Source: a virus (Duplodnaviria; Heunggongvirae; Uroviricota; Caudoviricetes). Taken from it: 6,359 nucleotides of DNA. Shown piece after piece: positions 1 through 6,359 of the stretch. Within the stretch, counting starts at the first letter, position 1, and the number at the start of each line of letters is the position of its first letter. Position numbers and translations under genes: made by a program. The DNA is taken from the IMG/VR virus record IMGVR_UViG_2619619134_000014. The stretch is one strand, 5' to 3'. The notes beneath the pieces were generated by a model. It was given only the letters and a program-made list of their open reading frames with translations, did no database searches and was not told the DNA's origin.

Positions 1-276
1 TTACCGACTGCGGCCTGAGTTTTTTAAGTGACGTAAAATCGTGTTGAGGCCAACGCCCATAATGCGGGCTGTTGCCCGGCATCCAACGCCATTCATGGCC
101 ATATCAATGATTTTCTGGTGCGTACCGGGTTGAGAAGCGGTGTAAGTGAACTGCAGTTGCCATGTTTTACGGCAGTGAGAGCAGAGATAGCGCTGATGTC
201 CGGCGGTGCTTTTGCCGTTACGCACCACCCCGTCAGTAGCTGAACAGGAGGGACAGCTGATAGAAACAGAAGCCAC
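1..276 (-). CDS. insA: IS1 InsA protein (91 aa)
   Basis: Translation [91 protein letters not shown] matches IS1 InsA from memory, including the zinc-finger-like CxxC...CxxC N-terminus and the HTH region. Confidence 0.95.
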
Positions 277-308
277 TGGAGCACCTCAAAAACACCATCA
301 TACACTAA

Positions 309-331
309 ATCAGTAAGTTGGCAGCATCACC
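309..331 (-). repeat. IS1 terminal inverted repeat (about 23 bp)
   Basis: Reverse complement of 309..331 is GGTGATGCTGCCAACTTACTGAT, matching the IS1 terminal inverted repeat as recalled. The transition to non-IS sequence is at 331/332. Confidence 0.85.
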
Positions 332-498
332 CGATGAACCATGAGAACGTCGTTGACGATGGCGTGCATTTTCCCGTCTTTATCATCAACGTATTTTCTG
401 ACCGTACCGCGACTACATTTCAGTCTGCGTGCTACTTCTGTCTGGTTTCCGTATGCTTCAACGAGCATGTCTGGAATGGTTTTTACTGAGAACGTCAT
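332..498 (-). pseudogene. ninH: ninH homologue, 3'-truncated by the IS1 insertion (first 56 codons intact)
   Basis: ORF 310..498 begins [56 protein letters not shown], matching lambda NinH (68 aa, from memory) up to residue 56. It then continues as VMLPTY-stop, which is encoded by IS1 terminal sequence. The ATG at 498 overlaps the ninG stop (ATGA). Confidence 0.8.
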
Positions 499-1106
499 GC
501 GGCCTCACTTCTGCTATTTCGCAGGTCTTTGAGTTTCTGCTGATACTCCGCCTTGATGGCCCTGCACTCTTCGACAGTCCAACGATGGCGGCTATGGTTT
601 GATTCGATTTCGTCTACTGCTTCCTGCCCGATGCGGCTAATCAGTTCGACGCGATACGGAACGAGATTTCCGCTTTTGTGCTGGTTGCACACCACGCATT
701 GCTTGTGAATATTGCGTTCATCAAATCGGAGTTGAGGTGCCGCAGCAGTTGTCCGGTAATGTCCGGCATCCCACTGAGCAGACGTGAGCGTTCCGCACGA
801 GATACATGGTAAGTCGCGGTCTCTTTCTCTGATGAAGGCGTTTACGGCTTTTTGGGCTTGTTTAATCCAGTAACTGCGGGGCTTTAAGGCGAGTTTTCGA
901 ATCTTAAGTTTATCTTTCTGTTTCTGCTCCTCTCGTCGTCGTTTCTTCTCTGCTGCCTTTTCCGCTTTTTCGCGTTCTTTGCTTCGTCGTTCGAGTGCTA
1001 TCTTTGTTCCACACTCTGGAGAGCACCACCACTGATTAGCGAATGCAGGGTGAAACCATTCCCGACATTCATCGTTTTTACATCGTCTTCGCGCTGGTTT
1101 AGCCAT
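495..1106 (-). CDS. ninG: NinG/Rap recombination-promoting protein (203 aa)
   Basis: Translation [41 protein letters not shown]... with a cysteine-rich N-terminus and a central lysine/glutamate-rich segment matches lambda NinG (Rap) as recalled. The gene sits between ninF and ninH as in lambda. Confidence 0.88.
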
Positions 1107-1275
1107 CGTCTTCTTCCTCGTACATTGAGCTATTCGGATCGCTCATCAGTTCTGCGCAGCAGTGCTCACACACGTGAACTTCCAGCACATGCAGCTTCTG
1201 ACCGCAGTTAGCGCACGTTAATGCCCGCTCGACGCTTTCTTTCTGGTATTGAAGGGATTGGGATGGGCTAAGCAT
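1102..1275 (-). CDS. ninF: NinF (57 aa)
   Basis: Not in the ORF track because it is under 60 aa. Manual translation of the minus strand from ATG at 1275 gives [58 protein letters not shown]-stop, with two CxxC pairs, matching lambda NinF as recalled. Its 3' end overlaps the ninG start. Confidence 0.82.
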
Positions 1276-1636
1276 TATTGGCGTCCTGAATCATGAGAAA
1301 TACAATCATGGCTGCGCGGAGAGGCGATTCACCGCAGAAGCAGTAGTCAGGAACCCAACAACCTTCCTCTAAATCACCTCCTGACCATGCGCACCATTCT
1401 TTTTCCGCTGTCATCCACATGGTGCTAATTTTGTTTTCAGTGATGATCGGATATGCGTCAGCGGCCATATTACATGGGTCGAAATATCCGCAAGGCAAAA
1501 ACTCACCACCATCAATTCCAGCCAAGTAAACTTCTTTCTTTTCTGGATCCCAGTCGTAATTGTTTTTTCCTAGCACGATATGCGCGACTTTTAAGTTAAT
1601 TTCAAAATCACTTAACTGTGAATAATCCATGGTCAT
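1268..1636 (-). CDS. NinX-like phage protein (about 122 aa) inserted between ninE and ninF
   Basis: ORF 1268..1672 minus. The likely start is ATG at 1636 ([44 protein letters not shown]...), preceded by GAGGAA and overlapping the ninE stop (ATGA). P22-type nin regions carry a ninX gene at this position; the family assignment is from memory and is not verified by alignment. Confidence 0.55.
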
Positions 1637-1809
1637 TTCCTCGCACGTTCTCTTAGCCACCGGATATCCCACAGGTGAGCCGTGTAATTGAAGGTTTTTA
1701 CGTCAGATTCTTTTGGGATTGGCTTGCGTTTATTTCTGGAGTGTTTCGTTGGAAGGTATTTGCAGTTTTCACAGATTATGTCGGTGATACTTCGTCGCTG
1801 TCGTCTCAT
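1633..1809 (-). CDS. ninE: NinE (58 aa)
   Basis: Internal Met of ORF 1633..1854 gives [58 protein letters not shown], matching lambda NinE as recalled. The ATG at 1809 overlaps the stop of the upstream gene (ATGA). Confidence 0.8.
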
Positions 1810-2216
1810 TCGTACCTCCTGTCGGTAAATCTGACACCCTGACCAATAGCCCATGCTGTCGTGTACTCAATCAGACTTGCCATACGCTTCACACTCATCT
1901 GCGCGCTACTTTCGCGAATGTTGACGTATTCGCCTTCAAGGCCGGGCAAAACATCAGCTTCCTGCTTTGTTGCCACTGCATGACCGCTGATCAACAAAAC
2001 CTTCCATTGTTCCGGTTTTAACCATTTGCCGCACCATTGAACCTGACGTGCGATATCCGCCAGCATCGCGTGAAATTTTGCGTTCTGGTCAAGGTTGCGC
2101 TTGTAGTCAGTAATGCGGATGGTGACTGGCTTGTCTTTATCGAGTGGTGTTGCGAGGATGGCATTTATTGCAGCTTGCTGTTGTTGCTTAGTTCGGAGGA
2201 AGATTGTTTGCTTCAC
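1806..2216 (-). CDS. ninB: NinB-family (NinB/Orf-like) recombination mediator, GTG start (136 aa)
   Basis: Translation [79 protein letters not shown]... shares the conserved pattern of lambda NinB (..RSLDQNRKLWACLGDVSRQVEWHGRWL..ESWK..). AAGGAG lies 6 nt upstream of the GTG at 2216. Confidence 0.7.
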
Positions 2217-2227
2217 TGAATACTCCT

Positions 2228-2413
2228 TTATTTTTTATGCCTGTAACCCCATTCTTCCAGCAACCTTGCGGCGTACCACCCAAGAAACAAAGGAAAGAAC
2301 ATTACAATGAGATATTCCCCGCCACGGTCAATGTTCGAAATTGACCAGATTACGATGTAACCAGTGCAGGACAGGAATATTACAAACCCCAAAAAGCTAC
2401 TTCGTCGACTCAT
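2228..2413 (-). CDS. small predicted membrane protein with two hydrophobic segments (61 aa from ATG 2413; the ORF track starts 2 codons earlier at GTG 2419)
   Basis: Translation MSRRSSFLGFVIFLSCTGYIVIWSISNIDRGGEYLIVMFFPLFLGWYAARLLEEWGYRHKK has two hydrophobic stretches of about 19 residues and a basic C-terminus. AAGGAG lies 5 nt upstream of ATG 2413, and the stop of the upstream gene (TGA 2416-2418) sits between that SD and the ATG. No family recognised. Confidence 0.5.
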   Translation of the reverse strand: MSRRSSFLGFVIFLSCTGYIVIWSISNIDRGGEYLIVMFFPLFLGWYAARLLEEWGYRHKK

Positions 2414-2415
2414 GC

Positions 2416-2742
2416 TCACTCCTTCACTTTGATTCCAGCAGCGCGGATGTTTTCCTCATAAGCATCCATTGCATCACCGAAGCCATTGGAATAATCAACA
2501 GTAAACCCTTTGGCTAATGCTTCTCTGCTGTCGATAAACTTTGGCGCGGTTATTTCAATAGCTGCTCGCGATGCCTGCCACGTTTGCCAGTGGCCTTGAA
2601 CATCGTCCATCACGTATTGACCACCAATATTACCGCTGCCAATTTCATGGTGATTTTCAGGGTAACGGATAAGGTCTGAAGATTCGCCTCCACGTCGCAA
2701 CCAACTTTCTTCAAACTGGCATCTGCTTTCGTCATCTTTCAT
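2416..2742 (-). CDS. hypothetical phage protein, probably N-terminally truncated (108 aa from ATG 2742; the frame stays open upstream to 2820 with no start codon)
   Basis: ORF 2416..2742 minus (MKDDESRCQFEESWLRRGGESSDLIRYPENHHEIGSGNIGGQYVMDDVQGHW...). The same frame is open for a further 26 codons upstream (YAAFNSAVGGGSTPWGEPIFIECDCL) with no ATG, GTG or TTG, and there is no Shine-Dalgarno before ATG 2742. This suggests the true N-terminus was lost at the junction near 2820. Family not recognised. Confidence 0.45.
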   Translation of the reverse strand: MKDDESRCQFEESWLRRGGESSDLIRYPENHHEIGSGNIGGQYVMDDVQGHWQTWQASRAAIEITAPKFIDSREALAKGFTVDYSNGFGDAMDAYEENIRAAGIKVKE

Positions 2743-2820
2743 AAGGCAGTCACATTCAATAAAAATCGGCTCTCCCCAAGGAGTAGAACCTCCGCCAACG
2801 GCGGAGTTGAATGCGGCATA

Positions 2821-3309
2821 TCAATCAAGATTGATTCCGAATGGGTAACCAAATGGGATGCTGCTGAAAACACGCAGGTAGAAGCCGTCAAAGGTGGTCG
2901 TTCCGGTGCAATGAAGCGCGCTGCCGTTCAGTGGGGAATCGGTCGGTATCTGTATAACCTTGAGGAAGGTTTCGCACAAACATCTCTCGACAAAAAGCAG
3001 GGATGGCACAGGGCAAAACTCAAGGATGGAACAGGATTTTACTGGCTCCCTCCATCGCTGCCGGGCTGGGCAATCCCAGCATCAGATAACAAACCATCAC
3101 CAGAAAATACCAACCAGAAATCTCCATCGGTTGACTGCGAACAAATCCTGAAAGACTTCAGCGATTATGCAGCGACAGAAACTGACAAGAAAAAACTCAT
3201 CGAGCGTTATCAGCGTGACTGGCAATTAATGGCTGGCAATGAGGATGCGCAGGCTAAATGCGTTCAGGTAATGAACATCAGAGTTAACGAGCTAAAACAG
3301 GCGGCATAA
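2821..3309 (+). pseudogene. erf: C-terminal fragment of a Rad52/Erf-like single-strand annealing protein (ORF from Met 2911 is 132 aa; protein-like frame is open from about 2821)
   Basis: The frame reads ...AVKGGRSGAMKRAAVQWGIGRYLY..., resembling the conserved KRA..FG.G motif region of Rad52/Sak-type annealing proteins. The C-terminus (CEQILKDFSDYAATETDKKKLIERYQRDWQLMAGNEDAQAKCVQVMNIRVNELKQAA) closely resembles the P22 Erf C-terminus as I recall it. The 150 or so residues that should precede the motif are absent, and upstream in-frame sequence before about 2821 is not protein-like. Confidence 0.6.
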
Positions 3310-3825
3310 ATGGCAAGCAGAGGCGTAAATAAGGTGATCATTATTGGTCGCCTTGGGCATGATCCAGAAATCAGATATTCACCATCAGGAACGGCATTTG
3401 CAAACCTTACAGTTGCTACGTCAGAACAATGGCGTGATAAGCAAACTGGAGAGCAAAAGGAGCAGACGGAGTGGCACCGCGTGGTAATGAGCGGGAAACT
3501 GGCAGAAATTGCCAGCGAATATCTGCGAAAAGGCTCTGAGGTTTATCTTGAAGGAAAATTGCGGACAAGAAAATGGCAGGATCAAAGCGGACAGGATAGG
3601 TTCACTACCGAAGTCATCGTGGGCGTTGGTGGAACCATGCAAATGCTTGGTGGCAAGCAAGGAGGCAATGAACAGTCTTCACCTCAGCGAAATAACGGTC
3701 AGCAACAAAGACAGCAATCTCAGCAGCAGGGGAATCACAGCGAACCACCTATGGATTTTGACGACGATATACCCTTTGCACCAGTAACTCTCCCCTTCCC
3801 TCGTCACGCTATTCACGCAATTTAA
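3310..3825 (+). CDS. ssb: single-stranded DNA-binding protein, phage-type, with a 15-residue extension beyond the canonical DDDIPF C-terminus (171 aa)
   Basis: Translation [115 protein letters not shown]... is near-collinear with E. coli SSB (OB fold, Gly/Gln-rich linker, [10 protein letters not shown] tail). The ATG at 3310 directly follows the erf stop (TAAATG). Confidence 0.95.
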
Positions 3826-3838
3826 TCAGGAGAAAATC

Positions 3839-4132
3839 ATGCCAGCGCCTCTGTATGGTGCGGACGACGCGCGCCGCTGTTCCGGCAATTCCGTATCAGA
3901 GGTGCTGGATAAATTCAGAAAAAACTACGATCGGATAATGTCGCTACCGCAGGAAACGAAAGAGGAAAAGGAATTTCGCCATTGTATATGGCTTGCAGAG
4001 AAAGAAGAACGCGAGCGGATTTACCAGACATCAATCCGACCATTCCGCAAAGCCACATATACCCACTTCCCTGAAATTGACCCGCGCCTGCGTAATTATC
4101 GATCACGCTATGGCGCTATCAGTAATGACTGA
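3839..4132 (+). CDS. hypothetical small phage protein (97 aa); possibly Abc2-like anti-RecBCD, unverified
   Basis: ORF with AGGAG 6 nt upstream of ATG 3839. Translation [97 protein letters not shown]. Its size and position downstream of the recombination genes are reminiscent of P22 abc2, but I cannot confirm sequence identity from memory. Confidence 0.6.
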
Positions 4133-4142
4133 GGAATTTACC

Positions 4143-4310
4143 ATGAGAGGACTTGCATACAATCCCGGCATTCTTCCGGCAGAAATGATTATTCGCCAAC
4201 GCGTAAAGCCAATGCCATCGAGAGAGGAATTGCTTAAAAGGAAGAGTTTCGGTTCTGTTAATGACAACAAATATCTGAATGCGATGTGGCGTAAAGGAGG
4301 CAAGCAGTGA
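4143..4310 (+). CDS. hypothetical small basic protein (55 aa)
   Basis: Internal ATG 4143 of track ORF 3993..4310, chosen because GAGGA lies 7 nt upstream and it starts just after the stop of the preceding gene. Translation [55 protein letters not shown]. Its stop overlaps the next gene's GTG start. Confidence 0.5.
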
Positions 4311-4606
4311 GTGTATGTCTTATTGATAAACGTCGACGTGGGCAACAAATACCATCTGTTGGAATGCCGAATCACACATGGTTTTGCGTACTTGATATCG
4401 ATGGTATGGATGCGTTGGTTGACACTCGTCATTACTGCGATACCGCAACAGCTACTCCGGCGAAAGCAAAGAAAATGGCTGCTCTGATAGAAAACTGGAC
4501 TCCACCTGATGGTTGGTGCAATGGGAATGATCGAGATTGGCATGAAAAAATGAAGGGCTATATCTGCGATTTCTTACGTAAATGCAACGGCTTCAGGGTG
4601 ATGTGA
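4307..4606 (+). CDS. hypothetical phage protein (99 aa, GTG start)
   Basis: AAAGGAGG lies 6 nt upstream of GTG 4307, which overlaps the upstream stop (GTGA). Translation [99 protein letters not shown]. No family recognised. Confidence 0.5.
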
Positions 4607-4607
4607 T

Positions 4608-5216
4608 ATGACCAAAATTAACTATCAGGCGCTGCGTGAAAAGGCAGAGAAAGCAACGAGTGGTGTGTGGTCGCTCGAATATGGAGAGGAGAGATTTGAT
4701 GCTGGTGATGCGCTAATTCATCGTGAAGTTGTTGGATATCTTCCCATTTGCAGAATTGAAGGAGCGCATCCTGAAAGCGGTTTCGATGAAGATTTCCAAA
4801 TGGAACAGCAGGCCAATGCTGAATTCATCGCCGCAGCCAATCCGGCTACCGTCTTGGCGCTGCTTGGCGAGCTGGAAGCAGCAAAAAAGCGCATAGCAGA
4901 ACTGGAAGCCGAACCTGTAAGCCAAACTTGCAAGTTGAACGAGCCATCGGGCAACTCTCCGGTAACTCCGGATGGTTGGGTTATAGTGCCGAAGAAACTA
5001 ACCGCTGAGAACGGCGCTAAGGGTGTGCTATCCGGTGAATTTTCAGAAACTACGTTTATAAGCTGCCCGGAATGCTTTGGTGATGATGATTGCGAAACTT
5101 GTGACGGCAGCGGGAGAATCGAAATCAAGGTTCCAGTCAGTTGGACAACTATCAAAACTATTTGGGCTAAAGGGTGTGAGTACTTTTCAATAGTAGCACC
5201 GCAGCAAGATGGGTGA
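4608..5216 (+). CDS. ead/Ea22-like protein with a C-terminal double-CxxC (CxxCxGxG-like) zinc-ribbon motif (202 aa)
   Basis: The N-terminal region (MTKINYQALREKAEKATSGVWSLEY ... ANAEFIAAANPATVLALLGELEAAKKRIAELEAEP) resembles the conserved N-terminus and coiled coil of lambdoid ead/Ea22-like proteins as I recall them. The C-terminus has CPECFGDDDCETCDGSGRIE. The start at 4608 follows the upstream stop by 1 nt. Confidence 0.55.
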   Translation: MTKINYQALREKAEKATSGVWSLEYGEERFDAGDALIHREVVGYLPICRIEGAHPESGFDEDFQMEQQANAEFIAAANPATVLALLGELEAAKKRIAELEAEPVSQTCKLNEPSGNSPVTPDGWVIVPKKLTAENGAKGVLSGEFSETTFISCPECFGDDDCETCDGSGRIEIKVPVSWTTIKTIWAKGCEYFSIVAPQQDG

Positions 5217-5303
5217 TGAAAACAAGTATTTATAACTTAAAAGCATTAAAAAATCGCTTATAGATCAAAAGAAATCTACGTCAAATATTACTATATTTCA
5301 ATG

Positions 5304-5312
5304 TGTTATAAT
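5304..5312 (+). promoter_or_regulatory. putative sigma70 extended -10 promoter element (TGtTATAAT) in an AT-rich intergenic region
   Basis: TGTTATAAT at 5304..5312 is a perfect -10 hexamer with the TGn extension, about 30 nt upstream of ATG 5343. No convincing -35 is present, consistent with an extended -10 promoter. The surrounding 5217..5340 is visibly AT-rich. Confidence 0.4.
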
Positions 5313-5342
5313 TACCCCGTACATAAAATGGGGGGACACAAA

Positions 5343-5585
5343 ATGTTCAAACGCTGCATCACCAAGTGTGGAAGCACACCTGACATCCAAGCTTTTATTA
5401 ATGAAGATGGTAAGCTTGTTGTTGAGAGGAGTGGTCCTTTTATTAGCAAACAACTTATCATTACCTCTCCAGCGGAGATGGCCGGGGAATGGATAGTTTC
5501 TGAACCAGAGGAGTTGCACATCCCGCTTCCTTATGGCCCTCAGGGACTGATTTATAACCGTTATGTTCAGAAGGAGGCGGGTTGA
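5343..5585 (+). CDS. hypothetical small protein (80 aa), moron-like
   Basis: Internal ATG of track ORF 5301..5585, with a G-rich SD-like GGGGGG about 7 nt upstream. Translation MFKRCITKCGSTPDIQAFINEDGKLVVERSGPFISKQLIITSPAEMAGEWIVSEPEELHIPLPYGPQGLIYNRYVQKEAG. No family recognised. Confidence 0.5.
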   Translation: MFKRCITKCGSTPDIQAFINEDGKLVVERSGPFISKQLIITSPAEMAGEWIVSEPEELHIPLPYGPQGLIYNRYVQKEAG

Positions 5586-6158: not shown

Positions 6159-6359
6159 ATGCAACACGAACTACAACCTGATTCACTGGTTGATTTGAAA
6201 TTCATCATGGCTGATACTGGCTTCGGTAAGACCTTCATCTATGACCGGATTAAGTCCGGCGACCTGCCAAAAGCCAAAGTTATCCACGGGCGAGCAAGAT
6301 GGTTATATCGTGACCATTGTGAATTCAAAAATAAGCTCTTAAGCCGCGCCAATGGGTAA
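6159..6359 (+). CDS. alpA: AlpA-family phage regulatory protein / excisionase-like DNA-binding protein (66 aa)
   Basis: Translation MQHELQPDSLVDLKFIMADTGFGKTFIYDRIKSGDLPKAKVIHGRARWLYRDHCEFKNKLLSRANG fits the AlpA/Vis-type helix-turn-helix pattern (..TG.S..TIY..I..G.FP.P.K.G.R...W.). GGAG lies 9 nt upstream of the ATG. Confidence 0.72.
   Translation: MQHELQPDSLVDLKFIMADTGFGKTFIYDRIKSGDLPKAKVIHGRARWLYRDHCEFKNKLLSRANG

Follow-up and report, generated by a model that had tools for sequence, protein, structure and literature searches.

What happens to the late genes of a prophage when an insertion sequence occupies the place where the Q antiterminator should be? This question is raised by a 6,359-nucleotide stretch of phage DNA (the whole of it is hereafter called the window), in which ninH runs directly into one end of an IS1 element. 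A sequence-only reading of the window proposed that the IS1 terminus, at about base 331, replaces the last 12 codons of ninH, that IS1 sits where Q and the late operon should follow, and that the late-gene switch is at least uncoupled and may be deleted. In the E. coli draft contig L012 (GCA_000700485.1) the window is matched exactly, and as this contig ends inside IS1, the far side of the element was read from near-identical genomes: L001 and L002 span the element, and L014 and L015 begin within it. The 62-aa NinH-IS1 fusion protein, looked up by exact match, occurred in 118 index blocks. The RefSeq complete genomes of E. coli served as a source of intact nin-Q-late layouts alone.

The IS1 end and the truncation of ninH

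The features of the window on which the argument draws are the following.

1-331, minus strand: left (IRL) end of IS1, nt 1-331 of the 768-bp element, compared with K-12 IS1A
1-276, minus strand: insA, whole gene; the window starts at the insA stop codon
309-331: the 23-bp IRL
310-498, minus strand: truncated ninH, 62 aa (Pfam Phage_NinH)
310-330: six codons and a stop supplied by the IS1 IRL at the end of ninH
331-498: ninH codons 1-56, the third base of codon 56 being the terminal base of IS1
331..332: the ninH::IS1 joint
332-340: the 9 bp flanking IS1, CGATGAACC (on the ninH sense strand, GGTTCATCG)
495-1106, minus strand: ninG, intact, 203 aa (Pfam NinG, E = 2e-91)
2416-2742: 108-aa fragment left by a second deletion
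2795..2796: joint of that second deletion, blunt and IS-free, with 6,771 bp missing relative to L006 933-7703
2911-3309: 132-aa Rad52 fragment left by the same deletion
6159-6359, plus strand: excisionase gene, its product 100% identical to the K-12 TorI protein, marking the attR/dsdC end of the prophage

Altogether the minus-strand open reading frames are insA, the 62-aa frame, ninG, ninF, ninX, ninE and ninB, and the early-left genes on the plus strand are the Rad52-family fragment, ssb, an anti-RecBCD gene, an ead/Ea22-like gene and the 66-aa excisionase gene.

The reverse complement of window 1-331 is identical at 331 of 331 bases to nt 1-331 of K-12 IS1A, which take in IRL and insA, and the insA frame matches both InsA Pfam domains, PF03811 and PF12759 (E = 1e-21 and 5e-31). 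IS1 terminates at window base 331 (...GCAGCATCACC). On the other side of the joint the DNA is identical to nt 1-167 of an intact 68-codon ninH and departs from it at nt 168, and a perfect 331-base IS1 match beside a perfect 167-base ninH match cannot be a product of chance. Of its 68 codons ninH thus retains 56, and the other 12 give way to 6 read from IS1. The sequence-only reading had placed the terminus and counted the lost codons correctly.

Residues 1-56 of the 62-aa product match positions 1-56 of the 60 in the Pfam Phage_NinH model (PF06322, E = 4e-41). NinH is a Fis-like homodimeric DNA-binding protein with a helix-turn-helix in residues 6-37, and its residues 44-68, His55 and Arg56 included, are implicated in dimerisation (PMC7166090). 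A full-length NinH has about 68 aa, with the N-terminal helix-turn-helix and the C-terminal dimerisation region, and the protein encoded here is a truncated member of the family; it is predicted to retain the helix-turn-helix and to lack residues 57-68, half of the C-terminal region implicated in dimerisation. As ninG, which lies upstream of ninH in the nin operon, is intact and the gene order equals that in the relative L011 and in phage Sf6, the nin region is collinear with theirs up to the joint.

The far side of IS1 and the missing late region

The chromosome L001 (5.04 Mb) has a single mismatch to the window over its 6359 bases (99.98% identical) and carries a complete IS1 of 768 bp at 10168-10935. 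The copies in L001 and L002 both have IRL and IRR, are identical to IS1A at 765 of 768 positions, and show the length, the imperfect terminal inverted repeats of about 23 bp and the order insA (zinc ribbon and helix-turn-helix) then insB' (DDE transposase) that define IS1; in L001, the product encoded downstream of insA matches PF03400 (DDE_Tnp_IS1). In L001 the element is flanked by GGTTCATCG on the ninH side vs CATGCAGAT at the far end, and in L002 the far flank is GTTTTCCTG, with no 9-bp target duplication in either genome. A copy without the duplication is still IS1, but it is something other than a simple insertion. A complete IS1 with no duplication on its far side is what the sequence-only reading had predicted for an IS1-mediated deletion, and on this 99.98%-identical chromosome that is what lies beyond the window.

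The DNA beyond IS1 in L001 belongs to a P22-type tailspike gene. A stretch of 335 aa encoded in the right flank shares 99% identity with residues 258-592 of an intact tailspike of 592 aa, and the IS1-tailspike joint in the DNA falls exactly after nt 750 of the gene (codon 250 of 592), so that the remnant, counted from the DNA joint, comprises residues 251-592. It is followed by genes for a 383-aa membrane protein, gtrB, gtrA, a 385-aa integrase, the tRNA-Arg(CCU) gene argW, yfdC, mlaA and fadL, and on the opposite side the excisionase gene adjoins dsdC. Many contigs likewise begin in IS1 and run on through the tailspike remnant, gtr and int to yfdC.

The ninH::IS1 joint is common to every related genome examined (L001-L008, L012 and L018). 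In L002 the IRL-ninH joint is identical and the IRR joint lies 3,258 bp further out, within gtrA; L002 has lost the tailspike remnant together with the 383-aa gene and gtrB, and retains only a part of gtrA. L001 and L002 thus provide two nested end points that share one joint. The protein P0019 (275 aa) was considered as a third end point and rejected, as its joint is no different and the difference lies in a later start-codon call.

The content of the missing interval can be read from L011, whose nin region is near-identical, and from Sf6. In both, ninH is followed by a ninI-like Ser/Thr phosphatase gene, the gene for a Q-type antiterminator and the holin, endolysin and spanin genes, and then by the terminase, portal, scaffold, coat, head-completion and ejection protein genes and the tailspike gene; PR', qut and tR' are annotated at the Q-type antiterminator in Sf6. 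The distance from ninH nt 168 to tailspike nt 750 comes to 17.6 kb in L011, a prophage with minor internal losses of its own, and to 18.7 kb by the map of Sf6. A composite of the early-late half of L011 and the late half of L009, immI region included, gives about 21 kb, and our estimate of the deletion (about 18-21 kb) rests on these three values. None of the late-region genes is present in L001 between IS1 and gtr. The near-identical genomes accordingly lack the ninH 3' end, the ninI-like phosphatase, Q, the lysis genes, all virion genes and the tailspike head-binding domain. Both IS1 flanks are oriented as in intact relatives, and they are collinear with these relatives except for a gap that starts exactly at the ends of the element (ninH nt 167/168 and tailspike nt 750/751).

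The relatives with near-identical nin regions bear out the proposal that IS1 occupies the place where Q and the late operon should follow ninH. Of the two fates offered for the late switch, deletion is the one borne out, L001 having neither Q nor late genes, and mere uncoupling is not. It is very likely that the deletion and the loss of Q and the late genes hold in the window's own genome too.

The RefSeq complete E. coli genomes contained neither the ninH::IS1 joint, nor the reciprocal joint, nor the tailspike/gtr segment, and the lineage is unrepresented among them. Among JGI metagenome contigs, the joint was seen in a single one (L018, OLIC01000429.1, 6,299 bp), which breaks inside IS1. A Shigella origin, which the presence of IS1 and gtr had led us to expect, was rejected, as the sources name the proteins as Escherichia coli (one as E. 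coli O130 and one as "MULTISPECIES Enterobacteriaceae").

Identity of the element and its integration site

The window forms the right-hand part of an E. coli prophage of the P22-like podovirus type (Sf6/HK620-type, Lederbergvirus), now decayed. The element is integrated in the tRNA gene argW, between yfdC and dsdC. In L001 the tRNA-Arg(CCU) gene lies at 15917-15991, and the 16-nt att core ATGGTGTCCCCTGCAG occurs at 15916-15931, at the 3' end of argW, and again at 4051-4066, between dsdC and the excisionase gene and 74 bp past the end of the window. These repeats bound an element of 11.9 kb. The integrase (385 aa) shares 99.2% identity with K-12 IntS, and the excisionase matches TorI throughout, as noted above; with the att core at both ends, the integrase at attL and the excisionase at attR, the arrangement is that of the KplE1/Sf6/HK620-type module at argW. 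This recombination module is common to KplE1, HK620, Sf6 and CUS-3, and its int and excisionase genes are transcribed independently (Panis et al., PMC2951348).

An intact relative, L009, occupies the same argW-yfdC site and has the same gtr cluster, a full 592-aa tailspike with its PF09008 Head_binding domain, and a complete P22-type late region (coat, gp4, gp10, gp26, gp14, gp7, gp20, gp16 and mnt/arc/ant). This relative, together with the IntS/TorI module and the Sf6-like early-left region, identifies the ancestor as a P22-like Lederbergvirus prophage. The P22-like virion module itself is deleted from the window's element, with only tailspike residues 251-592 left, and the element is a remnant of a Lederbergvirus member, not a functional member.

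In place of a serotype-specific gtr glucosyltransferase, the cluster in L001 has the gene for the 383-aa multi-pass membrane protein (11996-13147, minus strand), for which we found no Pfam match and no significant similarity to K-12 YfdI. The protein may be an uncharacterised O-antigen-modifying enzyme. Elsewhere, a 212-aa partial protein from another E. coli genome (P0025) has the same tailspike cut near residue 405 and preceded by the unrelated N-terminal stretch SVRHISKPISYFKIHLLSGISGGQ, which suggests an independent rearrangement, possibly by another mobile element.

Origin of the deletion

IS1 is established as a source of adjacent deletions, which arise by intramolecular replicative transposition; IS1 adjacent deletions were reportedly described by Reif and Saedler in 1975, and the process is reviewed in PMC11708052. 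We suggest that the same happened here. IS1 would have inserted in ninH after nt 167, between bases 2 and 3 of codon 56, and its IRR end would then have attacked a site some 18-21 kb downstream on the same molecule. The interval between them would have been lost, taking with it the 12 ninH codons, the ninI-like phosphatase, Q with PR'/qut, the holin, endolysin and spanins, the terminase, portal, scaffold, coat, head-completion and ejection genes, the immI region and the tailspike head-binding domain, and the IRR end would have become joined to tailspike codon 250, where the joint is now seen. The outcome would be a single complete IS1 without a target duplication, in a prophage unable to start late transcription, lyse the cell or build particles. 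A genome with IS1 in ninH between two copies of the 9-bp duplication, the state that the first step presupposes, was not found. A pattern in which one end is fixed and the other moves, as between L001 and L002, is the signature of IS adjacent deletions. In the E. coli long-term evolution experiment, IS-associated deletions without target duplications were found that often "increased in size over time" (PMC11708052).

Recombination between two IS1 copies predicts an identical product, with collinear flanks and no target duplication around a complete IS1. One copy in ninH and another, in the same orientation, in the tailspike gene would have recombined by way of RecA and excised the 18-21 kb, leaving one hybrid IS1. 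IS recombination is an accepted reason for absent target duplications (PMC11708052), and E. coli genomes are rich in IS1: most of 5,426 complete E. coli genomes matched the IS1-end queries, at a median of 10-11 places, a figure in which lambdoid ninH/ninG matches are counted too. This route, however, takes two independent same-orientation insertions in one prophage, against one for an adjacent deletion, and to reach the state of L002 it takes a third IS1, in gtrA, and a second recombination. A two-IS1 intermediate was not seen among the contigs read, a weak test given that short-read contigs break at IS1. The present-day sequences are compatible with both routes, and equally with an IS1 that was first in ninH or first in the tailspike gene. 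As the fixed end and the moving end of L001 and L002 call for one IS1 only, we favour a one-ended adjacent deletion, with modest confidence, as the origin of the joint, and regard two-copy recombination as rather unlikely.

Two further explanations were considered. The window's own contig ends in IS1 and its far side is seen in other genomes only, so that a simple insertion could be imagined there, with the ninH 3' end, Q and the late genes intact beyond IS1 and a 9-bp duplication. Both genomes that cross IS1, however, lack the duplication, the ninH 3' end and Q, and the many contigs noted above run from IS1 directly into the tailspike remnant. The reciprocal joint (IS1 IRR, GGTTCATCG and the ninH 3' end) was likewise absent from two public collections, metagenome_contigs and genome_contigs, in which the control joint was itself found just once, so that this search had little power. 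A simple insertion is accordingly most improbable. Just as improbable is a false ninH-IS1-tailspike adjacency created during assembly: IS1 occurs in many copies, a kind of repeat at which short-read assemblies break or are wrongly joined, and most of the joint-bearing contigs do stop at it, but IS1 is spanned in two independent assemblies, and the flanks belong to one prophage in the right relative orientation, with the expected host genes dsdC and argW/yfdC outside them and the 16-nt att repeat bounding the whole. Such a collinear arrangement is not expected of a random mis-join.

Loss of the immunity region and continuing decay

The adjacent deletion that we favour was not the only loss. The second joint in the window, at which we found neither microhomology nor an IS, marks the removal of the Rad52-family N-terminus, kil, cIII, the genes for a cI-type repressor, cro, cII, O and the primase/helicase, and the start of a phiTE_015-family gene. 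With pR gone, the nin operon as a whole is probably without a promoter. In L006 the ninH::IS1 joint is the same, and the genes for the cI-type repressor, cro, cII, O, primase/helicase (O/P), kil and cIII are all present, so that the IS1 joint is older than the 6.8-kb immunity deletion. Further deletions are found in other isolates: L002, L004, L005 and L007 are without window 1615-3601, and L008 is without window 757-5478. In some isolates a deletion extends past the prophage end into the host chromosome: L002, L004 and L005 are also without attR, torI and the 3' part of dsdC (a deletion of approximately L001 3601-4469), and L007 is without attR, torI, all of dsdC and part of dsdX (approximately L001 2567-4829). 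From their gene content, the strains with attR/torI/dsdC deletions have probably lost regulated D-serine use, and the remnant in them is probably unable to excise.

A plausible reason for this order of events is that, once the late genes were gone, induction would yield no phage and would still express kil and start replication in place, so that loss of the pL/pR-immunity-replication region would be harmless or even helpful. The genomes can be arranged as a series that runs from an intact prophage at the same site to the IS1 joint with immunity, then to loss of immunity, loss of gtr, and loss of attR, torI and part of dsdC. This comparison supports the stepwise decay proposed by the sequence-only reading. 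The "domestication" that it proposed, in the sense of selection for useful parts, is not supported: other isolates lose the gtr cluster, attR, the excisionase gene and part of the host gene dsdC, which looks like continuing erosion. There is no sign of selection keeping particular parts, and neither the gtr cluster nor the excision module is present in every isolate.

The remnant is thus an ordinary case of the IS-driven decay of a dead prophage, a well-known process. We think it improbable that it is instead a streamlined 11.9-kb island, excisable and O-antigen-modifying, rather than debris. That reading would draw on the two att cores, the intact IntS-type integrase, an excisionase identical to TorI, and the completeness of the gtr cluster, whose third gene belongs to no known family. 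If it were true, IS1 would have trimmed precisely the lethal and structural phage functions, and the island might persist through serotype conversion or TorI-type regulation and be transferred by a helper phage or by transduction. For annotation, the locus is best described as a defective P22-like prophage remnant at argW and a sibling of KplE1/CPS-53 that has lost the late switch and all virion genes in an IS1-associated deletion, and not as an inducible prophage. Beyond annotation its importance is small; the erosion series could serve as a teaching example or a lineage marker, and it opens no new question.

Comparison with known elements

Of the known systems, the K-12 cryptic prophage KplE1/CPS-53, a sibling of the element, comes closest. 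The two share the argW-dsdC integration site, the 16-nt att core at the argW 3' end, IntS and TorI at opposite ends and a gtr cluster beside int, and both are without an immunity (cI) module and morphogenesis genes. They are also similar in size, at 11.9 kb vs 10.2 kb for KplE1/CPS-53. They differ in their interiors and in the route of decay, and their DNA aligns at the two ends only. The gtr allele differs from that of K-12 (GtrA is 57% and GtrB about 25% identical, and the third gene has no significant match), and the K-12 element retains tail-fibre remnants and yfdK-T, has no nin region and has no IS1 annotated inside it. TorI also inhibits the TorR response regulator, and the identity of the excisionase in two remnants with otherwise unrelated interiors indicates a module conserved across mosaic phages.

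Among phages, Sf6, N7 and IME10 have early-left genes and an excisionase that are 96-97% identical to those of the element over large blocks, and Sf6 and its relatives (HK620, N7, IME10 and CUS-3) share with it the int/attP/xis layout and a lysogenic-conversion gene between tailspike and int. The Sf6 order of ninG, ninH, ninI-like phosphatase, Q and lysis genes shows which genes ninH should precede here. Sf6, however, is a complete and viable phage of 39 kb, whereas the element has lost about 25-28 kb in two deletions, and Sf6 carries oac and an IS911 in ninG where the element carries gtr and an IS1 in ninH. IS insertions in the nin region are not unusual in the P22-like group, as the IS911 of viable Sf6 illustrates.

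The deletion joint itself resembles those made by IS150 in the long-term evolution experiment (PMC11708052), in having an intact IS at the joint, no target duplication, and one fixed end while the other joint lies further outward in related genomes. The difference is that the order of insertion and deletion in time was observed in that experiment and has to be deduced here, the ancestor with a simple insertion not having been recovered.

The host region between mlaA and fadL also varies, in a manner unrelated to the prophage. L001 has neither of two genes found there in other genomes, namely a gene for 418 aa in L009 (18045-19301) and a gene for 224 aa in L014 (7567-8626) and L015.
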